This document shows, piece by piece, positions 2,705 to 52,516 of a DNA stretch of 64,000 bases (within the stretch, counting starts at the first letter, position 1; the number at the start of each line of letters is the position of its first letter). The stretch comes from an uncultured Chloroflexia bacterium (GTDB lineage: Bacteria; Chloroflexota; Limnocylindria; QHBO01). The notes below the pieces were generated by a model. That model made no database searches and had not been told where the DNA came from. It was given only the letters and a program-made list of their open reading frames with translations. The stretch covers positions 287,396-351,395 of the forward strand of contig CAVZPD010000009.1 of assembly GCA_963777045.1 (NCBI GenBank). The letters run 5' to 3'. The position numbers were made by a program, and so were the translations under genes.

Positions 2705-2881
2705 TCGATAGATCTCCGCACCTGCACCGGGAGGCCCGTCGTGGTGCGCTCTGGCCGATAGATCGGTGCAAGATGAGCGCGGGCGGCGCCCGCGGGCGGC
2801 CTCCGTGCACAACCGGCACCGATAGATCTGCAGCACAACGGCATGAACCACCTTCCTGGCGCCGTGGGGAAGATCTATCGG
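2705..2881. repeat. Dispersed four-box palindromic element, copy A
   Basis: CGATAGA 2706, TAGATCGG 2759 (variant), CGATAGA 2820, TCTATCGG 2874. Confidence 0.8.
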
Positions 2882-2919
2882 TCCCTCAAGCCAGTCGAGA
2901 ACAGCGGCTCCTCGACGGC

Positions 2920-3192
2920 TCAGCTGAAGAATCCGAACAGGAACCCCAGGAAGAGCGCGATCGCGGCCGCCGGGACGAAGGAAGCGGCGCGCAGGAACGG
3001 CGGCCAGCCCGCGTCGCCCAGGAACGCGTAGGCGGGAATCGTGACCGGGAACACGATCACGGCCACGGACCAGCCCACGCGAGCACCGAAACCAAGGTCG
3101 GGCCGATCCTGAACGTCGAGCCAGTACGCGGCGAGCACGATGAAGCCGCCCACGGCGGTGATGGCGAAGACGGCCCAGATGACGGGAAGCAT
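2920..3192 (-). CDS. Small membrane protein, unknown function
   Basis: 90 aa with three hydrophobic segments; TACGAT 7 nt upstream of ATG. Confidence 0.7.
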   Translation of the reverse strand: MLPVIWAVFAITAVGGFIVLAAYWLDVQDRPDLGFGARVGWSVAVIVFPVTIPAYAFLGDAGWPPFLRAASFVPAAAIALFLGFLFGFFS

Positions 3193-3222
3193 CGAGCCGA
3201 TCGTACGCCGGCCAGCGTCGAG

Positions 3223-3999
3223 CTACTTGCCGAGGTCGTTCAGCTCAGCCTCGCGGCGCCGTGCCTCGTCCGGTGCGTGGAAGAGATCGGTCAGCATGCC
3301 GGCGAGCGGCCGCCGCGTCGGGGTCGGGGGCTCATGCTGTGGCAGCATCTCGACGATAGCCGCTCGCACCCGCTCGCTGAGCTCCGCCCGCGCCGCCGGT
3401 CCGCGGATCCCGGCGCTCGGGACGGGGCCGCCGAAGCGAACCGTGAGCCGCTTGCCGAGCCACAGGTGCGTCGTGCCGGAGATGGCGCACGGGACGATCG
3501 GTACGCCGGCCATGCTGGCGAAGGCGATGGCTCCATCCTCGAACGGCTGCAGCTCCATCTCGCGAAAGCCGTTGTGTCCTTCGGCGAAGATCCCCAGCAC
3601 TCCCTCCACCGCGAAGACGTGGCGGACTGCGTGCACGGCCGAGGTGAGCCGAGTCATCGCCGGATCGAAGGGAATGACGCCGCCGAAGAAGCTCATCACT
3701 CGATTCTTGAAGCCGCGGGAGAAATCAGCCTCGCGCGGACCGAACCAGGTGATGCGGGGCGTGGCCGGCGTCACCGCCAGCACGATCAGCGGATCCCACC
3801 CGTTGTGGTGGTTCACGACGAGGCAGAACGGGGCGTCGGGCCAGCTCGCGAGGCCCTCCACGCGGACACGGAAGAGCGCTCGGACCAGCAGGCGGTCGGC
3901 GTGGCGCATGAGCCGGTAGCGCAGCGAGTCCTCGGCTCCCGGCCTGCGCGGCCCGGTGCGGCTCGCGCGCCGTGTCGCTTCGTTCGCTTGCGGCTTCAT
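3223..3999 (-). CDS. Lysophospholipid acyltransferase (PlsC family)
   Basis: NHHNGWD (HX4D), IFAEG, GVPIVPCAISG. Confidence 0.88.
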   Translation of the reverse strand: MKPQANEATRRASRTGPRRPGAEDSLRYRLMRHADRLLVRALFRVRVEGLASWPDAPFCLVVNHHNGWDPLIVLAVTPATPRITWFGPREADFSRGFKNRVMSFFGGVIPFDPAMTRLTSAVHAVRHVFAVEGVLGIFAEGHNGFREMELQPFEDGAIAFASMAGVPIVPCAISGTTHLWLGKRLTVRFGGPVPSAGIRGPAARAELSERVRAAIVEMLPQHEPPTPTRRPLAGMLTDLFHAPDEARRREAELNDLGK

Positions 4000-5318
4000 G
4001 CTGGTTGTGTTGCGGGCGCCGGCTCACCGGGGGCGGTCTCACCCGTCGCGTCCGCTTCGCGCCGCCTGGGGTTGACCCGGGTCAGTGCCAGGCCGGACAA
4101 CGCCACGAAGACAGCGGCCGTCGCCATGGCGGCGCGGGGCCCCACATCGCTCCCGGCACCGGCGCCCACCAGGTCCATGATCGGACCGCCGGCGGCGATG
4201 AAAACCGGGCCCGCCATGGCCGTTCCGGCGTTCAGGATCCCCATGTAGCGACCCGTTGCGTCCTTGGGAATCACGTCGGCCATGAGCGCCCAGTCGGCTG
4301 AGAGGAAGGTGCCGATGCCGATGCCGAACGGCACCCATGCCGCGATTGCGACGGCCGGTGAAGGGGCCAATGTCACCCCGACCATCGCCGCCGCGCACAG
4401 GGCCGATGCCGCCCAGATCACCTGCCGCCGTCCGAAGCGATCAGACAGCCGTCCGGCAGGAAGCGCCGCGAGGAGCGTGAGGACGCCCACGATCGCGGTC
4501 GTCAGGAAGAGCGTGCGGTCCGCCTCTTCCGCGGGAAGCCCATGCGTCCGCGTGAAATAGAGCAGGCCGAAGGCCGTCACGTTGTACGCCCCCAGGAAGA
4601 GGAGCCGCACGAGCAGGAGCCAGAGCACGTCGCGCTGCTGGAGGATGTCCCGCCCCCAGGCGGACAGGGCGACCTGCCTCCAGGGCTTCGTGCGCGGCAG
4701 GGCCTCGCTGCCCTCGCGGACGGTCGTGACGAGCACAACCATCGTCGCCAGCTCGACCGCACCCAGGGCCATCACCGTGAGCGGATCGCTGAGGATGGCA
4801 CCGCCGACCGTCGCGAGGCCCACGCCGACGATCGTGCCCAGCGCCAGCATCAGGCCCATCAGGCCGCTCGCCAGCCCGACCTGCCGTGCGGGGACCAGGT
4901 CGGGCACGTATCCCTGGAACGGGCCCTGCGCAAAGTTGGAGCTGACCTGGAGCAGGAAGTAGAGGGCGAGGATGGCCAGGAACTCGTTGCTCAGGGCCAG
5001 GCCGGCAAGGAAGAGCATGTCGAGGGCCGTACCGATGACGATGTACGGCTTCCGTCGACCCCAACGAGAAACGGTGTAGTCGCTGATGACCCCTACCGTC
5101 GGCTGCACCACGATCGCCGCGACCGCTCCCACGATGTAGAGCAGCCCCATCAGCGTGCCGGTGGCGCCGGGGTTGATGGCATCCAGCCGGGCGGGGATCA
5201 CCACCAGGTTGAGGCCACCCCAGATGGCCTGGATCCCGAGCCAGTAGATCGAGAGCGTCAGCAGCTGCTGCAGCGGCAGGTTCGCCCCCCGCAGGGCCGC
5301 ACCGGCTCGCTCACCCAT
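3996..5318 (-). CDS. MFS transporter
   Basis: About 12 TM segments; SDYTVSRWGRRKPY and GRLSDRFGRR motifs; ATGA overlap with the plsC-like gene. Confidence 0.9.
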   Translation of the reverse strand: MGERAGAALRGANLPLQQLLTLSIYWLGIQAIWGGLNLVVIPARLDAINPGATGTLMGLLYIVGAVAAIVVQPTVGVISDYTVSRWGRRKPYIVIGTALDMLFLAGLALSNEFLAILALYFLLQVSSNFAQGPFQGYVPDLVPARQVGLASGLMGLMLALGTIVGVGLATVGGAILSDPLTVMALGAVELATMVVLVTTVREGSEALPRTKPWRQVALSAWGRDILQQRDVLWLLLVRLLFLGAYNVTAFGLLYFTRTHGLPAEEADRTLFLTTAIVGVLTLLAALPAGRLSDRFGRRQVIWAASALCAAAMVGVTLAPSPAVAIAAWVPFGIGIGTFLSADWALMADVIPKDATGRYMGILNAGTAMAGPVFIAAGGPIMDLVGAGAGSDVGPRAAMATAAVFVALSGLALTRVNPRRREADATGETAPGEPAPATQPA

Positions 5319-5428
5319 GGCGCTCGCGCCTCCGCACGCGGTGGATCATGCACCCGCGGCACCCCAGTCGACTAGCCCCCCGCCGCGCAACCTGGGGCGG
5401 GCCGCGCCGCCGGGTTAGAATCGCGCTC

Positions 5429-6325
5429 GTGATCATCGATCCGATCCTGGTTCGCATCGGCCCCATCGAAGTCCACTGGTACGGCGTCATCATCGCCAGC
5501 GCCGTGCTGCTGGCCGGCCTCATCGGCACCATGGAGGCGCGCCGGCGCGGCGAGGACCCCGACACGGGCTGGTCGATGCTGCTGCCCGTCCTGGTGCTGG
5601 CCGTCATCGGCGCCCGGCTCTACCACGTCATCCACCAGTGGGACTTCTACTCGAAGGACCCGTGGCTGATCCCGCAGATCTGGAACGGCGGACTGGGCAT
5701 CCCCGGCGCGGTGGCGGGCGGCGTCATCGCCATCTGGGCGTACTCCCGCTGGGCCGGGCTCAATACCCTGCGCTGGTTCGACATCTTTGCCAGCGGGATG
5801 CTGCTGGGCCAGGCGATCGGTCGCCTGGGGAACTTCGTCAACCAGGAGCTCTACGGGCCGCCCACCGATCTTCCCTGGGGCATCCCGATCGATGCCGCCC
5901 ACCGCATCGGCCCATGGACCGATCTCTCCGCCTTCCCGCTCGACACGACCCGCTTCCATCCGCTCTTCGCCTACGAGGGGCTGCTCAACCTGGTTGGGCT
6001 GGTGGTCATCCTGTGGGCCGCGCGCCGCTTCGCCGCCTGGCTCTACGACGGCGACGTGCTCGTCTTCTACCTGGTCTGGTACAGCGCCGTGCGGATCTGG
6101 CTGGAGACGTTCCGGATCGAGAACTGGACGATCCTGGGCGTCCCGACCGCCACGTGGGTCGGCATCATCACGATCCTGGTGGCGGGGGGCATCTTCGTCC
6201 TCCGACACCTCAAGGGCTGGGGTACGCCCGGCGCCTGGATTCGCGAGCAGGAGCAGCGCGAGGCCGATGCGGCCGCGGCACATCCGGGTGAGCCGGCACC
6301 GACCACGGAGGCGAGCCCTGGCTGA
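5429..6325 (+). CDS. lgt: Prolipoprotein diacylglyceryl transferase
   Basis: HWYG, IGARLYHV, IWNGGL, GRLGNFVNQELYG, HPLFAYE; GTG at 5429. Confidence 0.95.
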   Translation: MIIDPILVRIGPIEVHWYGVIIASAVLLAGLIGTMEARRRGEDPDTGWSMLLPVLVLAVIGARLYHVIHQWDFYSKDPWLIPQIWNGGLGIPGAVAGGVIAIWAYSRWAGLNTLRWFDIFASGMLLGQAIGRLGNFVNQELYGPPTDLPWGIPIDAAHRIGPWTDLSAFPLDTTRFHPLFAYEGLLNLVGLVVILWAARRFAAWLYDGDVLVFYLVWYSAVRIWLETFRIENWTILGVPTATWVGIITILVAGGIFVLRHLKGWGTPGAWIREQEQREADAAAAHPGEPAPTTEASPG

Positions 6326-7379
6326 CCCATCCGGCATTCGGCCCGATGTGACGGCGGTCATCGGCGAGACTCCGCTCGTTGCCCTGGATCGCCTGGCGTC
6401 GGGCCTGGCACCGAGAGTCGCAGCCAAGCTGGAGCACATGAATCCGGGCGGATCGGTCAAGGACCGCATCGCGATGCCGATGATCGAGGCCGCCGAGCGG
6501 GCCGGCCTGCTGAAGCCGGGCGGCGTCATCGTGGAGCCGACCAGCGGCAACACCGGGGTCGGCCTGGCCATGGCGGCCGCGGTGAAGGGCTACCGCTGCA
6601 TCTTCGTCATGGCCGACAAGCAGTCGGAGGAGAAGCGCGCCCTGCTGCGCGCATACGGCGCCGAGGTGGTCGTCTGCCCCACCGATGTCGACCCGAACGA
6701 CGAGCGCTCCTACTACCGGGTCTCGGATCGCCTGGCGCGAGAGACGCCCGGCGCGTGGAAGCCGGACCAGTACGCCAACCTCGCCAACCCCGAGGCCCAC
6801 TACGCCACCACCGGACCGGAGATCTGGGAGGCGACCGAGGGGCGCATCACGCACTTCGTGGCCGGGATCGGCACGGGCGGCACCATCAGCGGCACCGCCC
6901 GCTACCTGCGCGAGCGCAACCCGTCGGTGGTGGTGGTGGGCGCCGATACGGAGGGCAGCGTGTTCAGCGGCGACACGCCGCACGCCTACCTGACCGAGGG
7001 CGTCGGCGAGGACTTCTGGCCGGCCACCTACGATGCCGATGCGCCCGACCTGATCGTGCGGGTCTCGGACCGCGACGCGATGCTGACAGCCCGGCAGGCA
7101 ACCGCCACCGAGGGCATCCTGGTGGGGGAATCGTGCGGTACCGCGCTGTGGGCCGCCCTGCAGGTGGCGCGCGAGGTCGACGAGCCTGATGCGCTGTTCG
7201 TGGTGCTGCTGCCGGACAGCGGACGCAACTACCTCGGCAAGCTGTACAGCGACGACTGGCTGCGCCAAGTTGGCCTGCTGGGAGCGAAGGAGCAGGTCGC
7301 CGACTACGACTGGCGCGCGACGCGCCCCTCGGTGGTCGTCCGTCGAGGCGAGGTCAGACGCCCGGCTCAGCCGGAGTAG
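6318..7379 (+). CDS. Cystathionine beta-synthase / cysteine synthase family (PLP)
   Basis: KLEHMNPGGSVKDR, EPTSGNTG, GIGTGGT, EGVGEDFWP, LPDSGRNY; start uncertain (CTG 6318 after GGAGG, or GTG 6348). Confidence 0.9.
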   Translation: MADPSGIRPDVTAVIGETPLVALDRLASGLAPRVAAKLEHMNPGGSVKDRIAMPMIEAAERAGLLKPGGVIVEPTSGNTGVGLAMAAAVKGYRCIFVMADKQSEEKRALLRAYGAEVVVCPTDVDPNDERSYYRVSDRLARETPGAWKPDQYANLANPEAHYATTGPEIWEATEGRITHFVAGIGTGGTISGTARYLRERNPSVVVVGADTEGSVFSGDTPHAYLTEGVGEDFWPATYDADAPDLIVRVSDRDAMLTARQATATEGILVGESCGTALWAALQVAREVDEPDALFVVLLPDSGRNYLGKLYSDDWLRQVGLLGAKEQVADYDWRATRPSVVVRRGEVRRPAQPE

Positions 7380-7570
7380 GGGTCGCTCTCCGGCTCCTCG
7401 CCCGGCTCGGCCTCGTCGCGGGTTCCCATGGTGTCGCCCTCGACGTTGACGGCGGTGGGCCCGTCCTCGTTGTAGAGACCGCCGGTCTCCGCAGCCGAGC
7501 CACCGAAGGCCGGCTCCGCGATTGGCTCGGTCTGCTCTTCAGGCGCGCTGCGCGGTTTCTGATTTGTCAT
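7367..7570 (-). CDS. Small acidic hypothetical protein
   Basis: 67-aa E/D/G/P-rich ORF with plausible codon usage. Confidence 0.5.
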   Translation of the reverse strand: MTNQKPRSAPEEQTEPIAEPAFGGSAAETGGLYNEDGPTAVNVEGDTMGTRDEAEPGEEPESDPYSG

Positions 7571-7614
7571 GTCCGCGGATCGGCGCATGCGACGTGCCAG
7601 CGGCGGGAGCGAGA

Positions 7615-7644
7615 CATGACCGGGCCCCGAGAGGCCCGGTCATG
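7615..7644. terminator. Hairpin, probable terminator of the DUF4242 operon
   Basis: CATGACCGGGCC-ccgaga-GGCCCGGTCATG, 12-bp perfect stem just downstream of the 7670 stop. Confidence 0.65.
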
Positions 7645-7669
7645 CTCCTTCACCGGAGGGATGTGAGCG

Positions 7670-8218
7670 TCAGCAGCTCACGCGCGGGTTGTACTCGTAG
7701 AACATCCCGCTGGGGTTCGGCTGCCAGACCCAGGCGTGCAGCTCGTAGAAGTCGGGCAGGCCGTAGCGGTTTCCGGCTGGCGTCAGGTGGAAGTGCTCCC
7801 CGAAGAGCTCCGGCGGCGCGGCGCCGGCACCGTTGGTGGCCTCCCAATCGGCCTTCAGCACCAGGTACTCGACGGCGACCAGCTTGAGGCGTCCATCCGA
7901 CTGCGGCTCGTAGATGAGCAGTTCGGGGGCAGTGGCGACGGCCTCGTCGTCGAGCAGCTCGGGCTTGAGATAGTGGATGCCCATGGTGCCCGAGCCATTT
8001 GGATCGGCGATGCAGGTGATGCCGGCAAGATCGGCGACTTCCACCGTATACCCGGCGGCCATGGCGGCGTCGATGTCGTGGAAGGCCGCCGTGGCGTTGC
8101 GGAGCGCGGCCAGTCCGGACTGTCCGGCTGCGGCCACTCCCGTCAGCGCGCTCGCCGCGAGCGCTCCGGCGAGCAGGGCTGGAATGAGACGCCGGAGTGG
8201 ATGCGATGTGGTCTTCAT
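7670..8218 (-). CDS. Secreted protein of unknown function (MGIHY / PELLIYEP / LHAWVW / NPRVSC motifs)
   Basis: N-terminal signal peptide; RBS GAGAGGA; follows a DUF4242 gene. Confidence 0.8.
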   Translation of the reverse strand: MKTTSHPLRRLIPALLAGALAASALTGVAAAGQSGLAALRNATAAFHDIDAAMAAGYTVEVADLAGITCIADPNGSGTMGIHYLKPELLDDEAVATAPELLIYEPQSDGRLKLVAVEYLVLKADWEATNGAGAAPPELFGEHFHLTPAGNRYGLPDFYELHAWVWQPNPSGMFYEYNPRVSC

Positions 8219-8231
8219 GATCTGGTTCCTC

Positions 8232-8483
8232 TCACTGTCCTTCGACGACCGGGTAGACGGCATCGGCCACCAGGCCGTGCGCCTCTCGGTGCACACGATT
8301 TGCGGCGTCCTCGTCTGGGGCGTCGACGAGGCAGAAGATCTTCCCCTGCTTCTCGTCGACCCAGTACCGCAGGTAGCGGACGCCGTACTGCTCCTGCGTC
8401 TTCAGATCGGCCTGGTGCGCCTGGGCCACGTCATCGGCCTTCACACCCCCGTCCAGGTTGTGCATGTCCATGTAGAGCGGCAT
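8232..8483 (-). CDS. DUF4242 protein (SCO4226-like nickel-binding family)
   Basis: MPLYMDMH..AHQADL..YWVDEKQGKIFCLVDAP..VHREAHG; RBS AAAGGAG. Confidence 0.9.
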   Translation of the reverse strand: MPLYMDMHNLDGGVKADDVAQAHQADLKTQEQYGVRYLRYWVDEKQGKIFCLVDAPDEDAANRVHREAHGLVADAVYPVVEGQ

Positions 8484-20295: not shown

Positions 20296-21075
20296 CTAGA
20301 CCTCGTACGTCTTGAGCGGCTGCGCGACCTCGAGTGGTCCCTCGTAGATGGCGCCGGCCTCCTTCATGGCCCACTCCCCGCCATCGGGCAGCGGGATGTG
20401 GGTCAGCACCAGGCGCCTGGCGTTCGAGCGCCGGGCAACCTCAGCGGCCTCCGATGGCAGCAGGTGCCCGCGGCTCTGCGGCTCGGGATCGTCCTCCTTG
20501 AGGTCGCGCAGGGCGGCCTCGCACAGGAAGAAGTCGGCGGTATCGGCCAGGCGGGGGAGCGCGGGGCAAGGCCCGGCATCGGCCGAGTAGGCGAAGATGC
20601 GGTCCGGGTCCTCGCCGTCGCCCCGCGCGCTGACGCGGAAGCCCCAGGTGCGCACGAAGTGCTGCGTCTCATCGGGCTCCATGCGGAGGTTGCCGATCTC
20701 GATGGGGCGCTTCCCGTCGTGCTCCACGAAGATGAAGCTCTTGTCGAAGAAGTTGGCGTAGCCGGCGCCCAGCGCCAGCTCCGCGAGCTGGGCGGTGGAG
20801 CCGGGCGGCACGATCACCAGCAGGCGCTTCTTGGCCACGTCGATCCACGGGTAGGAGTAGCGCAAGGTGATCAGGTCCAGGCAGTGGTCGGTGTGCATGT
20901 GGCTGATGACCACCGCGTCCAGCTCGTCGGGCGTGTTGCGGCGCAGCAGCTGAGCGACGACGCCGGGGCCGACGTCGAGCAGGATCCGGGAGCCGCCGCC
21001 CTCGAGCAGGTAGCCGGCGCATGCCTCGCCGGGGTTCGGTCGGGCCGGGCTGCGGCCAAGCACGGTCAGTTGCAT
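20296..21075 (-). CDS. MBL-fold metallohydrolase (RNase Z/YhfI-like)
   Basis: ISHMHTDHCLD, YSAD, LCEA, GHL, LVLTH. Confidence 0.9.
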   Translation of the reverse strand: MQLTVLGRSPARPNPGEACAGYLLEGGGSRILLDVGPGVVAQLLRRNTPDELDAVVISHMHTDHCLDLITLRYSYPWIDVAKKRLLVIVPPGSTAQLAELALGAGYANFFDKSFIFVEHDGKRPIEIGNLRMEPDETQHFVRTWGFRVSARGDGEDPDRIFAYSADAGPCPALPRLADTADFFLCEAALRDLKEDDPEPQSRGHLLPSEAAEVARRSNARRLVLTHIPLPDGGEWAMKEAGAIYEGPLEVAQPLKTYEV

Positions 21076-21145
21076 GTCCGGCCGATCTTAGGGCGCGCAA
21101 CCCCTTGCCTGTGTCGCAAATTCGACTGCCGCGGTGGTCGGTCGA

Positions 21146-21323
21146 TCGATAGATCATCGCCGATGAAACCCGGACTCCGTTTCGGCGTGGATTTGCACCT
21201 TCTATCGGTGCGTGCCGCGCGGGAGCGCGATCCCGGGGCGCACCCCGGGCTCCAGGTGCACCGATAGATGTGCCAAACGCGAGCCCGAAGCGACATCGGG
21301 GAGTCGTCTGCGCGTTCTATCGG
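21146..21323. repeat. Dispersed four-box palindromic element, copy B
   Basis: CGATAGA 21147, TCTATCGG 21201, CGATAGA 21262, TCTATCGG 21316. Confidence 0.88.
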
Positions 21324-21350: not shown

Positions 21351-22651
<1,301 letters not shown>

Positions 22652-22655
<4 letters not shown>

Positions 22656-30065: not shown

Positions 30066-30800
30066 TCAGCCGATCCAGCCGCGCACCAGCTCGGCGAGCC
30101 GCAGGAGCAGCGGAGCCAGCACCAGCGCCGGCAGGAAGTTCGCAACCCGGACTCGCTTGAGCTCCAGCAGGCGCAGCGCGACCCCGAGCAGGATGAGGCC
30201 GCCGGCGGCGGTGATGGCCAGCACCGTGGGCGGGTCCATCACGTCGCGCAGGAGGAATGCGCTGCCCGCGATTCCTCCCTGGACGACCAGGACGGTGAGC
30301 GCGGAGAGGTAGACCCCCGCGCCAAGCGCCGCCGCGAAGGCGATGCTCGCGACGCCGTCGAGGAGGCTCTTGGTCGCCAGCAGCGTGACGTCGCCGGAGA
30401 GGCCGTTCTCGATCGAGCCGAGGATCGTCAGCGGCCCCACGCAGAAGACGAGGCTGGCGGTGATGAACGCCTCGGCGATGCGGCTCGGCTCGCCACCGCG
30501 TGCCAGGCGCCGCTGGAACCACGCGCCGAGGGCCTCCAGGCCATCGTGGAGGTGCAGCAGCTCGCCGACGACCACCCCGCCCAACAGGCCGGCCAGCACG
30601 GCAAGGTCGTCGCCCGGCTGGACGACATCGGAGGTGAAGAGGGGGAGCGCCATCGAGATGGCGATCAGGACGGTGAAGAAGCCGAGCGCTGTGGTCAGGC
30701 TCTCCTGCATCCTCCGCGGCACGCGTGCACCGGCGAGCAGCCCGACGGTGGTGCCCAGGAGCACGGTCGCCACGTTGAGCAGGGTCCCGGTCAAGAACAT
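30066..30800 (-). CDS. DUF554 family membrane protein
   Basis: GTLLNVATV, FITASLVFCVGPLTILGS, KSLLDG, VANFLPAL. Confidence 0.92.
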   Translation of the reverse strand: MFLTGTLLNVATVLLGTTVGLLAGARVPRRMQESLTTALGFFTVLIAISMALPLFTSDVVQPGDDLAVLAGLLGGVVVGELLHLHDGLEALGAWFQRRLARGGEPSRIAEAFITASLVFCVGPLTILGSIENGLSGDVTLLATKSLLDGVASIAFAAALGAGVYLSALTVLVVQGGIAGSAFLLRDVMDPPTVLAITAAGGLILLGVALRLLELKRVRVANFLPALVLAPLLLRLAELVRGWIG

Positions 30801-30825
30801 GTCGTGCATTGTCGCCCGCTGGTCG

Positions 30826-31004
30826 TCGATAGATGTGCGGGAACGCTCCCGGATCGGTCTCCCGGCCCCGGTCTGGCTCATCTATCGGTGCGGGGGAGGG
30901 CCCGCGGCGTGCCTCCGGACGCTGTTCACGCTCACGGTGGACCGATAGACCGGCCAACTGTCAGCCCGGATCGACCATCGGGCACGGATGAGGCGATCTA
31001 TCGG
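30826..31004. repeat. Dispersed four-box palindromic element, copy C
   Basis: CGATAGA 30827, TCTATCGG 30881, CGATAGA 30943, TCTATCGG 30997. Confidence 0.88.
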
Positions 31005-31053: not shown

Positions 31054-32532
31054 ATGACCGAACCCGCTGCGCCAGTCCGCGCCCGCATGGCGCCCAGCCC
31101 CACCGGGCCCCTGCACATCGGCACGGCTCGCACCAGCCTGTACAACTTCCTCTTCGCGCGCCACGTGGGCGGCAGCTACATCCTGCGTGTCGAGGACACC
31201 GACACCGCTCGCAGCACGGTGGAGTTCGAGCGCGACATCATCGACAACCTGCACTGGCTCGGCATCACCTGGGACGAAGGCCCGCAGGCGGCCGGCGGCG
31301 AGGAGATCGGCCCCCTCGGGCCATACCGCCAGAGCCAGCGCATGGACCGATACGCTCGCGAGGCGGAGCGGCTGATCGCAACCGGCGATGCGTACCACTG
31401 CTGGTGCACGCCGGACGAGCTCGAGGCGGTTCGCAGGGAGCAGTCGGCAAAGAAGGAGGCACCGCGCTACAACGGCCGCTGCCTGACTATCAGTGACGCG
31501 GATCGCGAGCGATTCGCAGCCGAGGGCCGCCGCCCGGCCGTCCGCTTCAGGGTGCCGGCGGAGACCATCCGCTTCGACGACCTGATCCGTGGCGAGGTGG
31601 AGTTCGACAACGCGCTGCTGGGCGACTTCGTCATCGTGCGGGGCGACGGCGGGCCGCTCTACCACTTCGTGGTGGTGGTCGACGACGAGGAGATGGGCAT
31701 CACCCACGTCATCCGCGGCGAGGATCACCTGTCGAACACGCCCAAGCACATCGCTCTCATCCGAGCGCTCGGCTACCGCGAGCCCCGATTCGGGCACATC
31801 CCGCTGATCCTCAACCCCGATCGCTCGAAGATGAGCAAGCGCAAGTCGCAGACCGCCATCACCGCCTACCGCGAGCAGGGCTACCTGCCGGAGGCGATGG
31901 TCAACTTCCTGGCCTTCCTGGGCTGGAGCCCCGGCACCGAGGAGGAGATCTTCACCCTCGACGAGCTCGCCGAGCGGTTCGAGATCGAAGCGGTGCACAA
32001 GGGCGGCGCGGTCTTCGACGCCGACCGGCTCGACCACCTCAACGGCGTCTACATCCGCAACCTCACCGATGAGCAGCTCGCGCTGCGCCTGCGTCCCTTC
32101 CTGCCCGATGCCCTCGCCGACGAGTCGGTCATACGGGTGGTGCCGCTCATCAAGGAGCGCCTGGTGCGCCTCGCCGATGCCAGGGAGCTGCTCGCCTTCC
32201 TGACCGAGTCGGATGCCCAGGTGGCCGCGCTCTACGAGGCGGACGCGCTGCTGCCCAAGAAGCGGTCGCACGAGGAGGTGGCAGCAGCGCTGGCGGACGC
32301 GCGCGCGGCGCTGGACGGGCTCGACGCCGCCGACTTCTCGGCGGACGTGCTCGAATCGACCTGCCGCGCGAAGGCCGATGGGATGGGCTGGAAGGCCGGC
32401 GACTTCTTCAGGCCGCTGCGCGTGGCGATCACCGGGCGTCTCGTTTCGCCGCCCCTGTTCGGATCGATGGAGCTGCTGGGTCGCGAGCGAGTGCTGGCCC
32501 GGCTCGACGCTGCGCTGGAGCGGCTGCGATGA
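31054..32532 (+). CDS. gltX: Glutamate--tRNA ligase
   Basis: APSPTGPLHIG, LRVEDTD, HVIRGEDH, KMSKR. Confidence 0.97.
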   Translation: MTEPAAPVRARMAPSPTGPLHIGTARTSLYNFLFARHVGGSYILRVEDTDTARSTVEFERDIIDNLHWLGITWDEGPQAAGGEEIGPLGPYRQSQRMDRYAREAERLIATGDAYHCWCTPDELEAVRREQSAKKEAPRYNGRCLTISDADRERFAAEGRRPAVRFRVPAETIRFDDLIRGEVEFDNALLGDFVIVRGDGGPLYHFVVVVDDEEMGITHVIRGEDHLSNTPKHIALIRALGYREPRFGHIPLILNPDRSKMSKRKSQTAITAYREQGYLPEAMVNFLAFLGWSPGTEEEIFTLDELAERFEIEAVHKGGAVFDADRLDHLNGVYIRNLTDEQLALRLRPFLPDALADESVIRVVPLIKERLVRLADARELLAFLTESDAQVAALYEADALLPKKRSHEEVAAALADARAALDGLDAADFSADVLESTCRAKADGMGWKAGDFFRPLRVAITGRLVSPPLFGSMELLGRERVLARLDAALERLR

Positions 32533-42248: not shown

Positions 42249-43130
<882 letters not shown>

Positions 43131-43147
43131 CAGGAGTCCGTGTTCGG

Positions 43148-44149: not shown

Positions 44150-47100
44150 CGGCCGACGCCGAGCTTCTCCAGTCCGCGGTCAGCGAGGTCGCGCGCCTGC
44201 TGCGCGCCGACGGCGCGATGATCTACCTGGTCGACGAGGCGACGGGCCAGCTCCGCTTCGCCCACGACGCGGGGATCACGGATCCGGACGCGCGCCGCCT
44301 GATCCATGACCTGACGCTGCCGGTGGGGGTGGGGATGTTCGGCACCGCGGTCGCATCGCGGCGCATGACCGTCACGGACGACTACCCGGCCGACCAGCGT
44401 TTCACCCACAGCGAGGTCGCGGACCGCATCGTCACCGCCGCCCGGATGCGGTCGATGGCGGTCGCGCCGCTGCTGGCCAACGGCCGGCCGATCGGCGCCT
44501 GGGCACTACGCGTCGCGGCGCGGCCTCAGCGAGCCGCGGATCGCCTGCTGCGCGCCCTGGCCGACCCGCCGCCGCGCCATCGCCAACCAGCGGCTGGTTG
44601 CGCAGCTGGCCGCCTCCGAGGAGCGCTATCGGAACCTGGTCGAGGGCTCGCCCGACGTCGTCTGGGCCACCGACCACCGGGGACGCCTCGTCTTCCTCTC
44701 CGAGACGGTGGAGCAGCTGACCGGGCACCGGCCGACGAGCTGCTCGGTCAGCACTGGTCGGTGATGGTCGTCCCCGAGGACCGCGAAGGCTTCCAGCGAC
44801 GCTGGGACGAATCGAAGCAGCAGGGCGACGAGGAGCGTCGCGTCCGCTTCCGCATCCAGCGTGCCGACGGGACGCCGCGGACGGTCGAGCTGCGGGGCCG
44901 AGAGCGCGTCATGGCGAGCGGCATCGGCGCCCACGGCTCGATCCGGGACATCAGCGAGCTGGCGGGCCTGGAGGATGACCTGCGCGCGCAGGCGCAGGAG
45001 CTGGCGCCGCGTCGAGACCAGCAGACGGTGGCACGCGATCAGCGCGCCGCATCGCCGCGATGGAACGCGATCGGGAGGTGCTGCAGCAGGTGGTCGACGC
45101 CGCAAAGCGGCTGCTCGTCTCGGATGGCGCCCACCTCACCCTGCTCGACCCGGATGAGGCCGAACCTGCGGCCGCACGTCGTCGCCGGCGGCGTCGACGG
45201 ACGCGGCGCGCGTGGCTTGCCGGCGCAGGAGCGCTTCCCGATCGGCGGCGGGATCAACGGCCTGGCCGCGCAGACCGGCGTGCCGGTCTGGACGGACGAC
45301 TACCGGGTCGACCCGCGGATGCCGCACACCGAGGATGACTCGCCGGACCGGCTGGACCTGGGTGCCATGGCGGTCGCGCCACTGCGCGGGGTGCGCGGCG
45401 AGATCATCGGCACGCTCGCCATCTCGTACCGGGATCCGCGCGAGTCACGCCCGCGAGATCGCGCTGCTGGAGGGGCTGGCCGGGCAGGCCGCGATCGCTG
45501 CGCGCAACGCCGGCCTGTACGCGAAGCTGCGCGACAGCGAGCGCCGCTATCGACTCCTCGTCGACCACTCGCCCGACCAGGTCTTCGAGACCGATGCGCA
45601 GGGCCGTCTGACCTACCTCTCGTCAGCGAGCGAACAGCTGACGGGCCGGGATCCCGCCGAGCTGGTCGGCCATCCCTTCGCCGACGTCGTTGTCCCGGAG
45701 CAGCGCGATGAGCTGGACGCCACCTTCGCTCGCTTCCGCGAGCAGCCGCAGGTCGAGCAGCGCAGCGAATTCGTCTTCCTGCGGCGCGACGGTTCTCGAG
45801 TGCCGGTCGAGACCGTGGCCCTGGACGGGTCGACGACGACGGTGCCTTCGCTGGCATCCACGGATCGACGCGCGACATCAGCGAGCGGGCTCGGCTCGAG
45901 GCGAGCCTGCGCCAGCAGGCGGAAGAGCTGTCGCGTTCCGTCGACGCGCAGCGCACGCTTGCCGAGATCGCGGCCGAGATCAGCTCCATCCGCGACCCGG
46001 TCGGCGTGCTGCGCCGGACCGTCACGGCGGCGAGGCGGCTGCTGGGCGGTGACCACGCGGTGATCAACCTGGAATCGCGCACCGCCCAGGCGCTGGCACG
46101 GAGGAGACCGAAGCTGATCGATCCGGGCGCCATTCCCGTCGGGGTCGGCCTGGCCGGGACCGCAATCTGCCAGAGCCGCGTGCTGTGGACCGGGGACTAC
46201 CTGGCGGACATTCGTTCGTGCATCGGAAGAGGCCGATGCGTGGATTCGCGAGCACGGCTATCGCTCCCAGATCTCGGCGCCGCTGCACCAGGAGGAAGGG
46301 CCGATCGGCGCCCTGACCGTCTACGCGAAGGCAACCGACGCGTTCGACGAGGCGGATGCCGAGCTGCTCGACGCGCTGGCCGGGCACGCCGCCATCGTGC
46401 AGACCAACGCCCGCCTCTACGCCGAGACCCAGCAGGCGGCCGAGGAACTGGCACACCTGGTCGAGGCGCAGCGCTCGCTGTCCGCGATCGCCGCGCAGAT
46501 CAGCGCGATCCGCGACCCGTCGGTCGTCCTGCAGCGGACCGTGGACGAGGCGCGTCGGCTGCTCGGAGCCGACCTGGCCACATCAACCCACTCGACACCG
46601 GAACCAACCGCCTCGAATGGGCGGTCGCCTACTCCCCGGCCGATCAGCCGCTGGATGACGTGGTCGTGACGCCCGGCCCCGGGGTCTCCGGGACCGCCCT
46701 CGCCGAGCGCCGCGTGGTCCGCACGGGGACTACCTTAGGGACGCAGCCTTCGAGCACAGCCCGGAGCTGGATGCGTACATCGCCCGCCGCGGCATGGTCT
46801 CGATGATGTCCGCGCCGCTGGTCGCAGGCGACCAGCCGATCGGAACGCTCACCGTGCAGGCGGCACGCCTGATGCCTTCAGCGAGGACGACGCGCAGCTG
46901 CTGGATGCGCTCGCCGCACAGGCGGCCGTGGCGATCACCAACGCGCGGCTGCTCGAGCAGATGCAGGGCTCGGAGCGGCGCTACCGGCACCTGGTGGAGC
47001 ATTCCCCGGACCTGGTCTGGTCGGTGGATGCGGACGGCATCTTCACCTACCTGGGTGAGGCGCTGGAGCGGATGACCGGATTCCGCCGCGAGGAGCTGGT

Positions 47101-48001
47101 GGGCCGTCACTGGGGCGAACTGGTCGTTGCAACGTCGATGGATGATGCCCAGCGCGCCTGGGCCACCGTCCAGGAGCGCCCGGACGAGGAGCTGCAGCTG
47201 CGCGTGGTCCTGCGACAGGTGGGCGGGGGCGGCAGGCCGCCGAGGTGAACATGGTGGCCACCACCGTCGACGGCCGCTTCGCCGGCGCGCAGGGCTCGAT
47301 CCGCGACATCCGGGAGCGAGAGCGGCTGGAGGCGGACCTGCGCAGCCAGGCCGCCGCGATCGCCGCCAACGAGGAGCGGGCCAACCTGGCGCGCGAGCTC
47401 CACGACTCGGTGACGCAGGCGCTCTTCAGCATGGGCCTCACGGCGCGCGCGCTGGAGCTGCTGCTCGACCGCGACCCGGAGGCCGCGCGCGAGAAGCTGG
47501 CGGAGCTGCGGGACCTGCAGAAGGACGCCCTGGCCGAGATGCGGACGCTCATCTTCGAGCTGCGACCCCAGGGACTCGAGACCGACGGGCTGGCGCAGGC
47601 GCTCCGCAACCACGCGGCCGCGGTGCAGGGCCGGACCGGGCTGGCCGTGGCCGTGGAGATCGAGATGGACGAGCGGCTGCCGCTCCACGTAGAGGAGGCG
47701 CTCTACCGCGTCGCGCAGGAGGCGCTGCACAACGTGGTGAAGCACGCCAACGCCGAGAACGCGCGCATCGCCCTGCGGCGTCGGCCGCGAGCTGCGCCTG
47801 ACCGTGGAGGACGACGGCATCGGCTTCGACCCGGGCGACGTCCCACGCGGCCACCTGGGCCTGGTGGGCATGGGTCAGCGCGCGGAACGCATCGGGGCCG
47901 AGCTCGAGATCTCGCGCCGGCCGGGGGGTGGAACGCGGGTGCGTGTGACGCTGCCGCTCGCGACGATGGCCGGCACGCCAGAGGCCGCAACGGCGCAATG
48001 A
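44146..48001 (+). CDS. Multi-GAF/PAS sensor histidine kinase (HisKA_3), heavily frameshifted
   Basis: Repeated GAF (G.G..G, V.T.DY, APL, IG.L) and PAS (SERRYR.LV..SPD) blocks; ERANLARELHDSVTQ, QEALHNVVKHA, DDGIGF, GHLGLVGM. Confidence 0.9.
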
Positions 48002-48064
48002 CGTAGGCGCATCCCCCGTTCGCCCGATGCTCCGGGAGCGCTGCCGCGCAGATCATGGGGGCCG

Positions 48065-48451
48065 ATGGATACGAACGATCACGCGGACAGAATTGGCAAC
48101 GACGGCGTGCTGGTCGTGGACGCCGATCGCCGCGTCCAGCAGTCGGTGGCCGAGGTGCTCCGCGCTGCTGGCCTGAACGTCGTCGGCATGGCCGGCGACG
48201 TACGCTCCGCGATGGAGCTGATGGCGGACCTGCTTCCCGGCGTTCTGGTGGTGGATCTGCGCCTGCCCGACCCCGAGGCGGGCGCGTCGCTCATGTCGAG
48301 CGTGGCGCTGGGCTGGCCCGGGACACGGATCGTGGTCATGGGGTGGCCCGGCGGCGAGCGCGCTGACGCGCCGCGGGCCCATGCCTACGTCTCGAAGTCC
48401 GCGGAACCAGAGGACTTCGTTTCGGCCACCATCGCCGCCTGCGGCTGCTGA
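48065..48451 (+). CDS. Single-domain response regulator receiver
   Basis: VLVVDAD, VVDLRLPD, YVSKS. Confidence 0.8.
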   Translation: MDTNDHADRIGNDGVLVVDADRRVQQSVAEVLRAAGLNVVGMAGDVRSAMELMADLLPGVLVVDLRLPDPEAGASLMSSVALGWPGTRIVVMGWPGGERADAPRAHAYVSKSAEPEDFVSATIAACGC

Positions 48452-48521
48452 CCGAGCGCCGCGGGCCGCCGCTTGCCGCGCATGGCATGATCCGCCGGTG
48501 CAGGCCCGCCTACCGGCACCC

Positions 48522-50140
48522 ATGGCTGCGATCCTCGCCGTCATTCATAATGGCTCGCTGCGGCGCGTCCTGCTGGCCTACATCGGCTTCTCGATGGCCG
48601 AGTGGGGGAGCTGGATCGCGATCCTGGTCTATGCCTATGAGCGCGGGGGCGCCGCCGAGAGCGGGTTCGCGGCCCTCGTCCAGCTGGCGCCCTCGGCCAT
48701 CGTGGCGCCGATCGCCGCCTCGGTCGGCGACCACCTCCGCCGCGAGCGTGCGCTCCTGCTCGCCTACCTCGCCCAGGCAGCCGCGATGGCGCTCACCGCC
48801 GCGGCACTGCTGGCAGCCGTACCGTCACCGGTCGTCTACTCGCCGCGGCCGTCGCGGCGACGAGCGTGACGCTGACGCGGCCGATCCAGGCCGCCATCCT
48901 GCCGTCGCTGTCGCGCACGCCGGCCGAGCTGACCGCCGCGAACGTGGCCGACGGCAGCGTCGAGACGGTGGCGATCGTGGTCGGCCCGATCCTGGCTGGC
49001 CTGACGCTGGCGGTCGCCGGACCGGCGCGGTCTTCGTCGGCGCCGCGCTGGTCTCGTGGCGGGCGCGCCCTGGTGGCCGGCATTCGATCCGCGGGCCGCG
49101 AGCGGCCCGCCGGAGGTCCGCGACGGCTGGCGCGGCGTGGCCGAGGCGCTCGGCGGCTTCGGCGTCCTGGTCGCGGAGCCGCGGCCGCGGCGGTGCTGGG
49201 CCTGCTGGGCGCCGCCGCGGTGCTGGGGGGGACGCTCGACGTGCTGCTGGTGGTGCTCGCGGTGGACCTGCTGCTCATCGGCGACAGCGGGGGTGGGCTA
49301 CCTCAACGCGGCGCTCGGCGTCGGCGGGCTGGTCGGTGCCGGGATGCGCCGTGCTGCTCATCGGGCGTGCCCGGCTGGCGGCACCGTTCGCCGCCGGCAT
49401 CGGCCTGTTGTCGATCGCCCGTGACGCTGGTCGGCGTGGGCCGGCGTGGTCGTGGCCCTGGTGCTGATCGCCGCCGCCGGCATCGGCCGGGTGGTGATGG
49501 ATGTGGCCGGCCGGACGCTGCTGCAGCGCGTCGCGCCCGAGCATTTCCTGGCGCGAACCTTCGGCGTGCTGGAGGGGCTGCACATGGCTGCCCTGGCGGT
49601 CGGCAGCGTTCGCGGCGCCGCTGCTGATCCTCCTCGCCGGTGACCAGGGAGCCTTCGTGATTCCGGGCGGCGCGGTGGTGTCGTGGCGCTGCTGTGGCGT
49701 GCCGCTCGCTGGGCCGGATCGACAGCGTCGGCCTGGCGCGGCCGCGCGAGCTCGGCCTGCTGCGCGCCCTTCCGATCTTCGCGCCGCTCGGGACGGTGGA
49801 GCTGGAGCAGCTGGCCGTCAACCTGTGCCGGTGCACGCGCATGCCGGCGGCGCGATGATTCGCCAGGGCCAGAAGGGGGATCATTTCTACATCGTGGTCA
49901 GCGGCGAGGTGGAAGTGACGATCGACGGACGCACCGTGCGCCAGCTCGGCGCCGGCGACTCGTTCGGCGAGATCGCCCTGCTCCGAACGTGCCGCGCACC
50001 GCGACGGTCAGCGCGCTGGAGCAGCAGCTCCTGTCGCTCGAGCGCGGCGCCTTCCTGGAGGCGGTCACCGGCCAGCCCGCGAGCCAGCAGCGCGGCCGAG
50101 GCCGTCGGTGCGAGGGCACCTGGGCACCCCCGCGGAGGAT
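48522..50140 (+). CDS. MFS transporter fused to a cyclic-nucleotide-binding domain, frameshifted
   Basis: [14 protein letters not shown] and TM segments, then [31 protein letters not shown]. Confidence 0.85.
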
Positions 50141-50144
50141 GCCG

Positions 50145-51203
50145 ATGCGCGCGCGTGACCTGGGCATCGTGATCGGGCTGCTGCCACCCGGCGCGAACAA
50201 CGCGATCACCGACGTGGATGGCGTGCGCGTCGGCCACGCCACCCTGGTCGACGGGGACGGGCCGCTTGTGGTCGGCGCCGGACCGGTGCGAACCGGCGTG
50301 ACCGTCATCCTGCCGCACGCGGCGAGATCGGCGCGAGCCGTCTTCGCCGGAACGCACACCCTCAACGGCAACGGCGAGCTGACCGGGCTGGAGTGGGTGC
50401 GCGAGTCGGGGCTGCTGACCACGCCCATCGGCCTGACCAACACCCACAGCGTGGGAGTGGTGCGCGACGCGCTGGTCACCGCCAGCATCCATGGCGCCCC
50501 GCACGGCCAGCCACGCTGGGCGCTTCCCGTCGTGGGCGACGTGGGACGGCTACCTGAACGACATCGATGGCCAGCACGTCGGCGGAGCATGTCTCGCGGC
50601 CCTGGCCGGCGCCGCCGGACCCGGTGACGGAAGGGAACGGGGTGCCGGGACCGGGACCAAGGCCTTCGGCTTCAAGGCTGGGATCGGCACGCTCGCGCGT
50701 GGTGCGCGAGGCGCCGGTGGCCACACCGTGGGGGTGCTGGTGCAGGCCAACCACGGCCGGCGCCATCGGCTCAGCATCGACGGCGTGCCGGTCGGGCGCG
50801 AGATCACGGCGAGAGGTGCCCGGCCCGGACGTGTCGCGCCCGACGGTGGATCGATCATCGTCGTGGTGGCCACCGACGCGCCGCTCCTGCCGCACCAGTG
50901 CCGGCGCCTGGCGCAGCGTGCCTCGCTCGGCATCGCCCGCGGCGGCGGGGGAGGCGAGCACACAGCGGCGACCTGTCATCGCGTTCGCCACCGGCAACCG
51001 GGGCCTTCGCCCGAGGAGGACGAGGGGGCGCCGCCCCACGCGGCGCTGCGGATGCTGAACGACGTCCACATCGACGCGCTTTCTGGGCGACCATCGAGGC
51101 GACCGAGGAGGCGATCGACAACGCGCTGGTCGCCGCCGAGACGATGACCGGCCGCGACGGGATCACCTTCCACGCCATCCCGCACGATCGCCTGCGCAGG
51201 TGA
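50145..51203 (+). CDS. P1/S58 family peptidase (DmpA-like), frameshifted
   Basis: RARDLG, NAITDVDGVRVGH, RTGVT, NGNGELTG, LTNTHSVG, GSIIVVVATDAPL, EATEEAI.NAL. Confidence 0.92.
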
Positions 51204-51235
51204 TGGCACCGATACGGCCGCGGCGGCCGGCTGGG

Positions 51236-52284
51236 TCAGACGGCGGGCGCATGGCCTCCCCGGATCGAGCCAAGGTCGGCGGCGCGGGCTGAGCGACCCT
51301 CCTCGCCCGCGACGATGTCCGGGTCCTTGAGCCCGTGCCCGGTCAGGATGCAGACGACCGTCTCGGACCGATGCAGCCGCCCCTCCCGGCCAGCCGCGCC
51401 ACGCCGGCGACCCCGGTAGCCGAGGCAGGCTCGCAGAAGATGCCCTCGATGCGCAGGATGCGCCGCTGCATCTGCAGGATCTCTTTGGTCCGGGATCGCC
51501 TCGATCAGGCCGCCAGACTCGTCGCGCGCGGCCAAGGCTCCCGGCCACGAAGCGGGATTGCCGATGCGGATCGCGGTCGCCGCCGTCTCCGGGTGCTCAC
51601 CGGCTCCCCGCACGATCGGCGCGGCCCCCTCGGCCTGGAAGCCAGCATCCGCGGCCGGCGGCCACCGGCGTGCGGCCCTCGTCGGCGTAGCGCGGAAGCC
51701 GGACCAGGCGGCGGTGATGTTCCCGGCGTTGCCGACCGGGAGCGCCACGGCGTCCGGGAGGCGCCAGCTCGTCGACGATCTCCCAGGCGACGGTCTGCTG
51801 CCCGGCGATGCGGTCAGGGTTGACGAGTTCACGACCGCCGCCACGCCCTCCTCGCCGAGCCGCCGCACGGCGGCCAGCGCCTCGTCGAAGTTGCCATCGA
51901 CCATGATCAGCCGCGCGCCAGCAGCCAGCGCCTGCGCCAGCTTCCCGCGCGCCACCTTGCCGGCCGGCAGCACCACGAGGCACGCGATGCCGGCCGCGGC
52001 GGCGTACGCCGCGGCGGAGGCGCTGGTGTTGCCGGTCGAGGCGCAGACCACGCGCCGCGCGCCCCGGCCTCCACGGCGCGGGTCACGGCCAGGACCATGC
52101 CGCGGTCCTTGAAGCTAGCCGGTCGGGTTCGTGCCCTCGACTTGAGGTGCAGCCGATCCAGCCCCAGCTCCTCACCCAGCCGCCGAGCGTAGACCAGCGG
52201 AGTACCGCCCTCGCCCAGGGTGATGCGGGAACGCCTCGCGGCCCGGGCCAGCAGGTCGCGGTAACGCTCGAGGAGCGCGGCCAT
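51236..52284 (-). CDS. thrC: Threonine synthase, frameshifted
   Basis: TLGEGGTPL, SFKDRGM, CASTGNTSAS, PVGNAGNI, ATAIRIGNP, LTGHGLKDP. Confidence 0.93.
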
Positions 52285-52347
52285 CAGCCGGTGCCCGCCT
52301 CGGCAGACTTAGCGAGCCTCAGGCACCGCCCCGTTCACGGCCCGGTG

Positions 52348-52516
52348 CCGATAGATCGGCCCCAGCGAGCATCACGCTTGAGAGGCGCTACCGTTACCGT
52401 ATCGGTACGACAGGGGCGCACGACGTCAGCCAGGAGGCGACCGTTGCCACGTCGCGTGGGACGACCGAGCCCGCGCCGCCCCGTCGCCGGGCGCGTTCCC
52501 GTTGGATCTCTATCGG
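52348..52516. repeat. Dispersed four-box palindromic element, copy D (degraded or error-rich)
   Basis: CCGATAGATC 52348, GTATCGGT 52399, TCTATCGG 52509; third box unclear. Confidence 0.6.

Follow-up and report, generated by a model that had tools for sequence, protein, structure and literature searches.

The DNA analysed here is a 64-kb stretch (the window, positions 287396–351395 of contig C9) from the genome assembly of an uncultured soil Chloroflexota bacterium (the source assembly, G000), which amounts to 3.02 Mb in 31 contigs with a G+C content of ~70% and is 90.8% complete. Three gaps between the genes of the window contain the sites named copies A, B and C, in which the 7-mer CGATAGA and its reverse complement TCTATCG form four boxes at set distances, and the layout given for these copies in an initial annotation of the window was found to be exactly as described. 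In the window, the 7-mer CGATAGA was counted 16 times, with 3.37 expected, and none of 100 shuffled sequences reached that number. The arrangement CGATAGA-N47-TCTATCG occurs five times against 0.00 expected, which agrees with the earlier observation that five of the six forward-to-reverse spacers are 47 nt long. We found that copies A, B and C are members of a palindromic dispersed repeat of ~176 bp, which has ~55–70 intergenic copies in this one genome. It is a real feature and no chance pattern, namely a lineage-specific, mobile and non-coding intergenic repeat that keeps four boxes in a fixed register while its unconstrained positions are saturated.

The spacing of the boxes in the source assembly was monitored by counting all CGATAGA/TCTATCG pairs within 200 nt, without selecting copies. 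An offset of 54 nt was observed 75 times, 55 nt eight times, 53 nt twice and 7 nt once, and the next offsets, 118 and 160–172 nt, were those of the far boxes of the same elements. The initial annotation had made its element depend on a genome-wide enrichment of the 47-nt spacing, and this enrichment was clearly seen, with nothing beyond the offsets of 53, 54, 55 and 7 nt below 118. At least two boxes in register were found at 59 loci and at least three at 54 loci. The full alternating pattern ('><><') was present at 29 loci, and the variants '>>><', '><<<' and '<<<<' kept the register with flipped box cores. A profile hidden Markov model made from 51 copies was searched with nhmmer and returned 69 loci at E ≤ 1e-3, of which ~56 were at E < 1e-20 and 13 were weak; a few loci are counted twice, as the assembly also holds contigs of a second haplotype. 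Most of the copies are dispersed singletons, and the few local duplicates include a tandem pair at C10:20711/20987.

When the left units of the element were compared with the reverse-complemented right units, both gave one common consensus, by which 33 of 33 left and 32 of 33 right units could be oriented. The element is therefore of the form U–centre–rc(U), where rc stands for reverse complement, and its consensus of 176 bp is a palindrome of the perfect type. Each U is 61 bp long and bounded by two 10-bp boxes with the sequence CGAT-NN-ATCG, in which the central dinucleotide is free; in the source assembly AG and CT predominate, and ~8% of the boxes have this dinucleotide flipped. The box frames stand at 0, 51, 115 and 166, giving a box spacing of 51/64/51 bp. 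A GC-rich CCCGG...CCGGG dyad lies inside each U in this genome and a GGTGCAGGCTGAGCGTG...CACGCTCAGCCTGCACC dyad forms the centre of the element. The outer boxes read CGATAGATC...GATCTATCG, and this non-coding unit of 176 bp thus has the small size and the terminal inverted repeats of a miniature inverted-repeat transposable element (MITE).

The conservation of the 176 columns in the alignment of 51 copies was bimodal, with 48 columns conserved at ≥90%, 29 at 70–90% and 51 having no majority base. The columns at ≥90% comprise the boxes, the CC/GG dyads inside U, TG, and GGTGCAGG..GAGC with its mirror, and spell CGATAGAT..., CC, GG, ATCGG, GC and the like; many conserved columns (CC/GG dyads, GGTGCAGG, GAGC) played no part in picking the copies. 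The 51 free columns showed a pairwise identity of 0.326 against 0.266 expected from composition, which is near saturation. Among 29 copies of 176 bp, identity was 50–68% in all but one of the 406 pairs, the exception being a local tandem duplicate with 94%. The length was strict, as 29 of 45 full copies measured 176 bp, 13 measured 177 bp and 3 measured 175 bp. Alignments between the haplotypes inside the assembly contained 180 gap openings per 1419 mismatches, and neutral sequence that had diverged equally should carry several indels per element. The initial annotation had described a conserved length with free sequence; the fixed geometry and the near saturation of the free columns uphold this, whereas its description of the spacers as mostly unrelated was overstated, with 48 of 176 columns conserved at ≥90%.

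The features of the window that relate to the repeat are given in Table 1. In copy A, the second box reads CGATAGATCG in place of CGATCTATCG; its two central bases are flipped and the 10-mer stands in register. The sixth forward-to-reverse spacer, that of copy A, is therefore no exception in geometry, as the core of the box has been flipped while the 10-mer keeps its register. A near-identical counterpart of copy A is present on the haplotype contig C19, and copy C is identical (176/176) on the haplotype contig C3. A fourth site, copy D, had been listed with the other three, and this assignment could not be sustained, as it scored 5.8 bits over model positions 5–106 (half of the profile) and gave no match at E ≤ 1e-3 in the genome-wide search; it is at best a decayed remnant. 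The profile also found a degenerate full-length copy that had been missed earlier (copy E), which lies 13–16 nt downstream of a tRNA gene at 61815–61886 (tRNA-Gln by aragorn). Targeting of tRNA genes was considered as a general feature, and only 3 of 69 loci were within 150 bp downstream of one of the 59 tRNA genes, which is too few to claim it.

Table 1. Copies of the repeat, their boxes and neighbours, and one further non-coding feature, in window coordinates.
Feature	Position	Boxes and spacing	Profile match	Neighbours and remarks
Tandem repeat beside copy A	2651–2703			13-bp unit, 4.1 copies, 95% matches; ends 2–3 nt before copy A
Copy A, full element, '>>><'	2705–2881	2706–2712 (CGATAGA), 2756–2762 (flipped core, CGATAGA for TCTATCG), 2820–2826, 2874–2880 (TCTATCG)	nhmmer E 2.6e-35 (C9:290093–290281)	peptidase M20 gene 1174–2595 (-); small open reading frame 2920–3192 (-)
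Copy B, full element, '><><'	21146–21323	21147, 21201, 21262, 21316; offsets 54/61/54	nhmmer E 1.8e-31	MBL-fold hydrolase 20296–21075 (-); citrate synthase 21351–22655 (-)
Copy C, full element, '><><'	30826–31004	30827, 30881, 30943, 30997; offsets 54/62/54	nhmmer E 6.7e-35	divergent: DUF554 30066–30809 (-); glutamyl/glutaminyl-tRNA synthetase 31087–32532 (+)
Copy D, doubtful decayed remnant	52348–52516	outer boxes 160 apart against 169; inner boxes degenerate		
Copy E, degenerate full-length	61902–62085	CGATACATCG / CCATCGG / CCGATGTAAC / CGATATGCCG	nhmmer 29.2 bits, model positions 8–191	
Fluoride riboswitch (crcB motif)	42981–43053 (-)			38.9 bits against a gathering score of 34

The genomic context of the copies was examined in the source assembly. 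There, 48 of 59 loci showed zero overlap with called genes, and the orientations of the flanking genes were -/- in 19, -/+ in 14, +/+ in 13 and +/- in 11 cases. Those neighbouring genes that were looked at come from housekeeping families without relation to each other, among them citrate synthase, tRNA synthetase, ClpB and peptidases. These observations bear on the possibility that the copies are the operator arrays of a regulon, that is, transcription-factor sites that control the neighbouring genes and evolve in place. As palindromes of 10 bp, the boxes do resemble sites to which dimeric regulators bind; four of them stand at fixed spacing, and 14 of 57 copies lie between divergent genes, compared with 14% of all gene pairs. 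However, convergent genes flank 11 copies and co-directional genes 32, the neighbours that were looked at come from unrelated families, the orthologous promoters of congeners have no copies, and the six copies found in a genome of another genus (see below) combine a common full-length consensus with unrelated flanks, as judged by eye, which argues for transposition and not for convergence. We regard the operator array as very improbable.

The mobility of the element was evident from the comparison of close genomes. The locus orthologous to site B was empty in all three congeners that hold it (G001, G002 and G003), and so was the locus of site C (G001, G002 and G004). Furthermore, when Logan contigs of four DNA runs were compared with the window, one metagenome contig from a relative bridged site B by linking position 21076 with 21352 through 64 letters where the window has 275, while another contig of 229 nt, which may come from the source sample, matched 21082–21311 without differing letters. 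The assembly itself holds a second, related haplotype or strain on contigs C3, C19, C2, C23, C4, C20 and C8, which were 75–99% identical to parts of C9, C22, C26, C10 and C6 by self-BLAST. Between the two haplotypes, four sites were filled in one and empty in the other and one site was truncated to the last 19 nt of the element, the flanks being 88–92% identical; at two further sites the element was common to both and the flanks were 99.6–100% identical. Two side observations came from the same comparisons. The region 32500–62000 of the window has few gene calls and aligns to C3 at only 75–83% with many gaps, and corresponds to what the initial annotation had called an error-rich zone; and a perfect tandem array with a 279-bp period and 100% identical copies was seen at C15:267286–269253.

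In one genome of another genus (G046), six copies (L120–L125) with one full-length consensus, unrelated flanks and the box pattern '>> <<' were found, their similarity being judged by eye from the sequences and not computed. Their likeness stops exactly at the outer boxes, and seven congeners of this genome are without the element. These copies are a recent burst in one species. Given that the element is present or absent between congeners and haplotypes, and that the burst copies cease to resemble each other beyond the outer boxes, what moves is the unit that spans boxes 1 to 4. Both the insertion polymorphism and the occurrence of similar copies at unrelated loci, as known for MITEs, were therefore observed.

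The family could also be a dead selfish MITE that decays neutrally, in which case the conservation of boxes and spacing would be an artefact of collection or of uneven mutation and no protein would read the element today. This is in line with the lack of young copies in the source assembly, where the only close pair is the local tandem duplicate, with the existence of degenerate copies (D, E, the 13 weak profile loci and the copy cut to 19 nt in one haplotype), and with the failure to find a transposase of five families in that assembly. On the other hand, for four exact 7-mers to be kept by chance in 29 copies, a vast pool of decayed copies would be needed, and only the 13 weak loci were found. 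In addition, columns outside the selection are also conserved at ≥90%, the unselected offset histogram is sharply peaked, and the turnover between haplotypes that are 88–92% identical, together with the young burst in the other genus, indicates that somewhere the family has remained active. A dead element in neutral decay appears improbable.

The distribution of the element was checked in 175 genomes of the family and in 191 genomes of other families of the class; the tallies include the unpublished genomes G121 and G144 in the family and G263 outside it. Multiple copies occur only in one family of uncultured Chloroflexota (Ca. Limnocylindria). The exact pattern of the source assembly was found in 21 of the 175 genomes and a relaxed pattern, CGATNNATC-N40-44-GATNNATCG, in 74. 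In three genera, the relaxed pattern was present in 50 of 63, 7 of 8 and 3 of 4 genomes. It gave up to 52 units per genome, and its reversed control gave 0 in every genome. In the other families 22 of 191 genomes gave 1–2 matches each, mostly CGATCGATCG-type strings, which look like chance. When the units of different genomes were compared by eye, the two central bases of the boxes took almost any value while CGAT and ATCG were fixed, and the bases directly outside the boxes were genome-specific. Database matches titled Ktedonobacteria, Mesorhizobium and Gammaproteobacteria (L035, L044 and L045) had none of the internal motifs; they were taken as chance and dropped before the cross-genome pairing count described below. 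A public metagenome-assembled genome titled Steroidobacteraceae (L058, L030 and L046) carries typical elements and coincides with G169, a genome of the family to which the window belongs, so its label is probably wrong.

The possibility that structure is the selected feature was also weighed. Here, as in REP (repetitive extragenic palindrome), ERIC and Correia elements, a hairpin or cloverleaf in transcripts, in single-stranded DNA or in cruciform DNA would influence the stability of mRNA, termination, supercoiling or replication, and preservation of the fold would be the reason why boxes and lengths are kept. The consensus is palindromic, and the minimum free energies of the copies were well below those of dinucleotide shuffles, with mean z-scores of -3.48 on the plus and -3.25 on the minus strand and z below -2 in 43 of 51 copies. 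Copy B folded as single-stranded DNA at -50.8 kcal/mol (z -3.81), with a box1:box4 stem enclosing three hairpins. Furthermore, the dyads inside U vary by genome and yet remain dyads, namely CCCGG/CCGGG in the source assembly and GCGCC/GGCGC and CGCAG/CTGCG in two relatives (G152 and G161), as seen by eye, and the '>> <<' pattern of the burst copies would allow the boxes to pair 1:4 and 2:3 in a nested fashion. When pairs were counted across genomes in fixed register, those within the same unit were also in weak excess (9.7 against 9.2 of 17, reached by 57 of 2000 permutations).

Tests of selection on pairing gave negative or weak results. RNAalifold on the 51 copies returned only five invariant box pairs and no covariation, and the mid-stem columns of U paired in only 20–60% of the units in any fixed register. 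Compensatory pairing within the source assembly gave no signal, the energies for arms of the same copy and for swapped arms being -15.9 against -16.0 and -20.1 against -22.7 kcal/mol, and across genomes the duplex energy of the same unit was -11.7 against -11.0 kcal/mol for swapped units (272 of 2000 permutations, p about 0.14). The left half of a copy and its reverse-complemented right half were 45.2% identical, against 46.9% between different copies, and a single long hairpin formed by the two halves of the whole element was rejected on these values. The centres of partner boxes are often non-complementary in the source assembly and in relatives, and flipped cores, as in '<<<<' and '>>><', break the box pairing. 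Any palindromic consensus would give equally strong folding z-scores. The element has no T-run and no strand preference, and occurs alike between convergent, divergent and tandem genes. Rfam at the gathering threshold found only tRNA and the fluoride riboswitch in the window, and 20 of 54 copies searched at E ≤ 1 gave no match. These results together leave a structural function as a possible explanation, and not a probable one. They also speak against the array-like RNA processed at the boxes that had been proposed earlier, as the copies are dispersed singletons of a strandless palindrome with five invariant pairs and no same-copy compensatory signal. An array like those of clustered regularly interspaced short palindromic repeats was likewise dismissed, since the boxes alternate in orientation, number four per locus, and the loci are dispersed apart from a few local duplicates.

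A feature that is shared by many copies is a tandem repeat (period 7–21, 2–8 copies) that abuts one end of the element in 23 of 54 copies in the source assembly and never both ends. In control windows of the same size, tandem repeats were seen in 83 of 3067 intergenic (2.7%) and 36 of 2000 random windows. At two homologous sites, where the element is missing or truncated, only one copy of the repeated unit was present, and the unit sometimes extends over the first 4–6 bases of the box. Similar flank repeats were seen by eye beside the elements of G152 and G161. We hypothesize that these tandem repeats are by-products of DNA synthesis that stalls or slips at the bound or hairpinned end of the element.

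The presence of a partner enzyme was searched for in several ways. The initial annotation had reported no cognate enzyme in the window, which was correct and extends to the whole source assembly for the families Y1_Tnp (RAYT, REP-associated tyrosine transposase; PF01797), TnpB (PF07282), IS110 (PF01548), DDE_Tnp_1 (PF01609) and rve (PF00665). The genome with the burst copies gave no Y1_Tnp, IS110, DDE_Tnp_1 or rve match, TnpB having been searched in the source assembly only. Across the family, Y1_Tnp was found in 2 of 175 genomes, which are incomplete, and unrelated to the presence of the element (74 of 175). IS110, IS4/5-type DDE and rve proteins were found only in some of three element-free congeners and were absent from the two element-bearing genomes. 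Likewise, no parent insertion sequence with matching ends was found in these two genomes (IS110, DDE_Tnp_1, rve and Y1, with TnpB in the source assembly), and the genes beside solo units (C18 and C31), the weak-copy cluster (C10), the cluster in G161 and the copies at contig ends were ordinary. The absence of enzymes is absence of evidence, with one genome 90.8% complete, the other in 480 contigs, and five families tried.

Our best explanation, held with about even confidence, is that the sites are copies of a lineage-specific, non-coding and non-autonomous mobile element of ~176 bp, of the REP/BIME/MITE class (BIME, bacterial interspersed mosaic element), whose boxes and geometry are read by a DNA-binding enzyme. 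A trans-acting, sequence-specific protein would read the four box sites in fixed register, the likeliest candidates being a dimeric recombinase or transposase and a host protein that descends from such an enzyme. The boxes, the few further motifs and the spacing would have been kept because this protein reads them, and the remaining columns, being unread, would have drifted to saturation. Such reading would explain why the centre of the boxes is free, why flips are tolerated, why covariation is lacking and why the length is so strict. Boxes 1/3 and 2/4 are 115 bp apart, or ~11 helical turns. In addition, the sequences are old, the positions are young and there are no close pairs, which suggests that the element moves mainly conservatively, by cut-and-paste, with occasional replicative bursts as in the other genus; we put this forward as a hypothesis.

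Several points weigh against reading by a protein and have to be set beside it. No partner protein was found among the five families tried in the source assembly. Since the first collection of copies relied on exact boxes, the conservation of the boxes is inflated; the offset histogram, made without selection, and the profile search, with no more than 13 weak loci, limit this bias and do not remove it. The helical phasing is approximate, since 51 bp make 4.9 turns and 64 bp make 6.1 turns. The palindromic consensus and the strongly negative z-scores fit a hairpin or cruciform function equally well, and the fixed-register count across genomes showed the weak same-unit excess given above. No direct repeat of 3–6 nt was found across the ends of 46 copies beyond what the boxes themselves contribute, and cut-and-paste movement by a DDE enzyme is without direct support as this target-site duplication was not found. 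The side on which the tandem repeat stands was unrelated to GC skew (below 0.03 everywhere), gene strand bias and gene ends. Finally, the gene calls by which the copies are intergenic came from our own crude codon-usage caller, which called 87% of the source assembly coding. The dead MITE and the operator regulon fit worse than a mobile element that is read by an enzyme, and the main rival to it is the hairpin or cruciform in RNA or single-stranded DNA.

A more specific form of the favoured explanation is offered only tentatively, as rather unlikely. Here the element would be the substrate of a geometry-reading recombinase or transposase, other than the Y1/RAYT, TnpB, IS110, IS4/5-type DDE and rve families, that reads the four CGAT-NN-ATCG sites and moves the unit mostly conservatively, and the bound or extruded element would block DNA synthesis and so make the one-sided tandem duplications. 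If such an enzyme exists, each lineage of the element would be of great age and would have been filtered for mobility, whereas the place that it occupies in the genome would be young.

The repeat makes up ~10–12 kb of the intergenic DNA of the source assembly, in a group, the Limnocylindria (CSP1-4/Ellin6529-type soil Chloroflexota), that is abundant and uncultured. It offers a clean natural example of a mobile repeat that is constrained in its length and in a few short motifs and is otherwise free, and for this reason the recognition code of the partner protein would be directly readable. The link to one-sided tandem duplication, if it holds, connects small palindromic repeats with the way in which minisatellites arise locally. 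Assemblies are also broken by the elements, which could be used to tell strains apart in soil metagenomes. The points of interest are thus the readable constraint on geometry, the missing enzyme and the one-sided tandem duplications.

The relation of the element to known systems was then considered. The initial annotation had taken it for the best candidate in the window for an undescribed system, which is too strong, since it behaves like the intergenic, palindromic and mobile repeats already known as the REP/BIME/MITE class. No match to a described family was obtained in Rfam or in the literature, and no description of the element was found in the abstracts and passages covered on Limnocylindria, on REPIN (doublets of REPs)/RAYT systems and on MITEs together with Chloroflexi. 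Passages of the one study on the genome architecture of the group report long intergenic spacers together with an increased density of transposases for the CSP1-4 lineage, and its main text is free of the word 'repeat' (PMC13212565).

BIMEs are made of units in alternating orientation with linkers of set length and occur in tens to hundreds of copies, and the copies of a REPIN cluster around a master sequence. The element resembles the REP/BIME/REPIN-RAYT systems in that it is extragenic, palindromic, multi-copy and arranged in inverted doublets, all of which were observed here. It differs from REPINs in that its copies in one genome are only 50–68% alike, and from the REPIN-RAYT pairing in that the source assembly has no RAYT and only 2 of 175 genomes of the family, as incomplete metagenome-assembled genomes, have one. 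Like REPs and REPINs as portrayed in the relevant passages of PMC3733652, it is non-autonomous, persists vertically in one lineage and varies strongly in copy number between relatives. REPs measure 20–40 bp with an unpaired GTAG or CGTC tag according to the same passages (PMC3733652), whereas the unit here measures 61 bp and the whole element 176 bp, with neither GTAG nor CGTC among the conserved columns. The CGTC-tagged REPs are described there as ones that 'apparently lack a dedicated transposase' (PMC3733652), and the present element resembles them as a palindromic intergenic family without a recognisable cognate transposase, while tag, size and architecture differ. Chloroflexi are mentioned once in that paper, in the passages covered, for the GTAG-23 repeats of Thermomicrobium roseum, which are unlike the element described here (PMC3733652).

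With MITEs, the element shares the short and non-coding nature, the outer boxes as terminal inverted repeats, the presence or absence between close genomes and the burst in one species. Unlike them, it shows no target-site duplication and has one-sided tandem repeats of period 7–21 instead, no parent insertion sequence with matching ends was found, and its interior has reached saturation, the ends and the length having been retained. The ERIC, Correia/NEMIS, BOX and RIME families are imperfect intergenic palindromes of 100–200 bp, often transcribed and some of them modular; in all of them conservation extends over the entire sequence, and TA duplications or IHF sites are known for several. The present element is also an imperfect palindrome in intergenic DNA and differs in not being conserved along its whole length. 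No ERIC, Correia/NEMIS, BOX or RIME family is known to have CGAT-NN-ATCG boxes. Finally, the res sites of Tn3/gamma-delta and the attC sites of integrons contain palindromic protein-binding subsites at fixed spacing within ~120–180 bp, and in attC the structure or geometry is conserved while the sequence is free. The element resembles both in having several palindromic subsites at fixed spacing and departs from both in occurring as 50–70 dispersed copies and not as single sites tied to a recombinase gene or a cassette array. Within the known class of mobile intergenic palindromes, the repeat family itself and some of its properties appear to be new.

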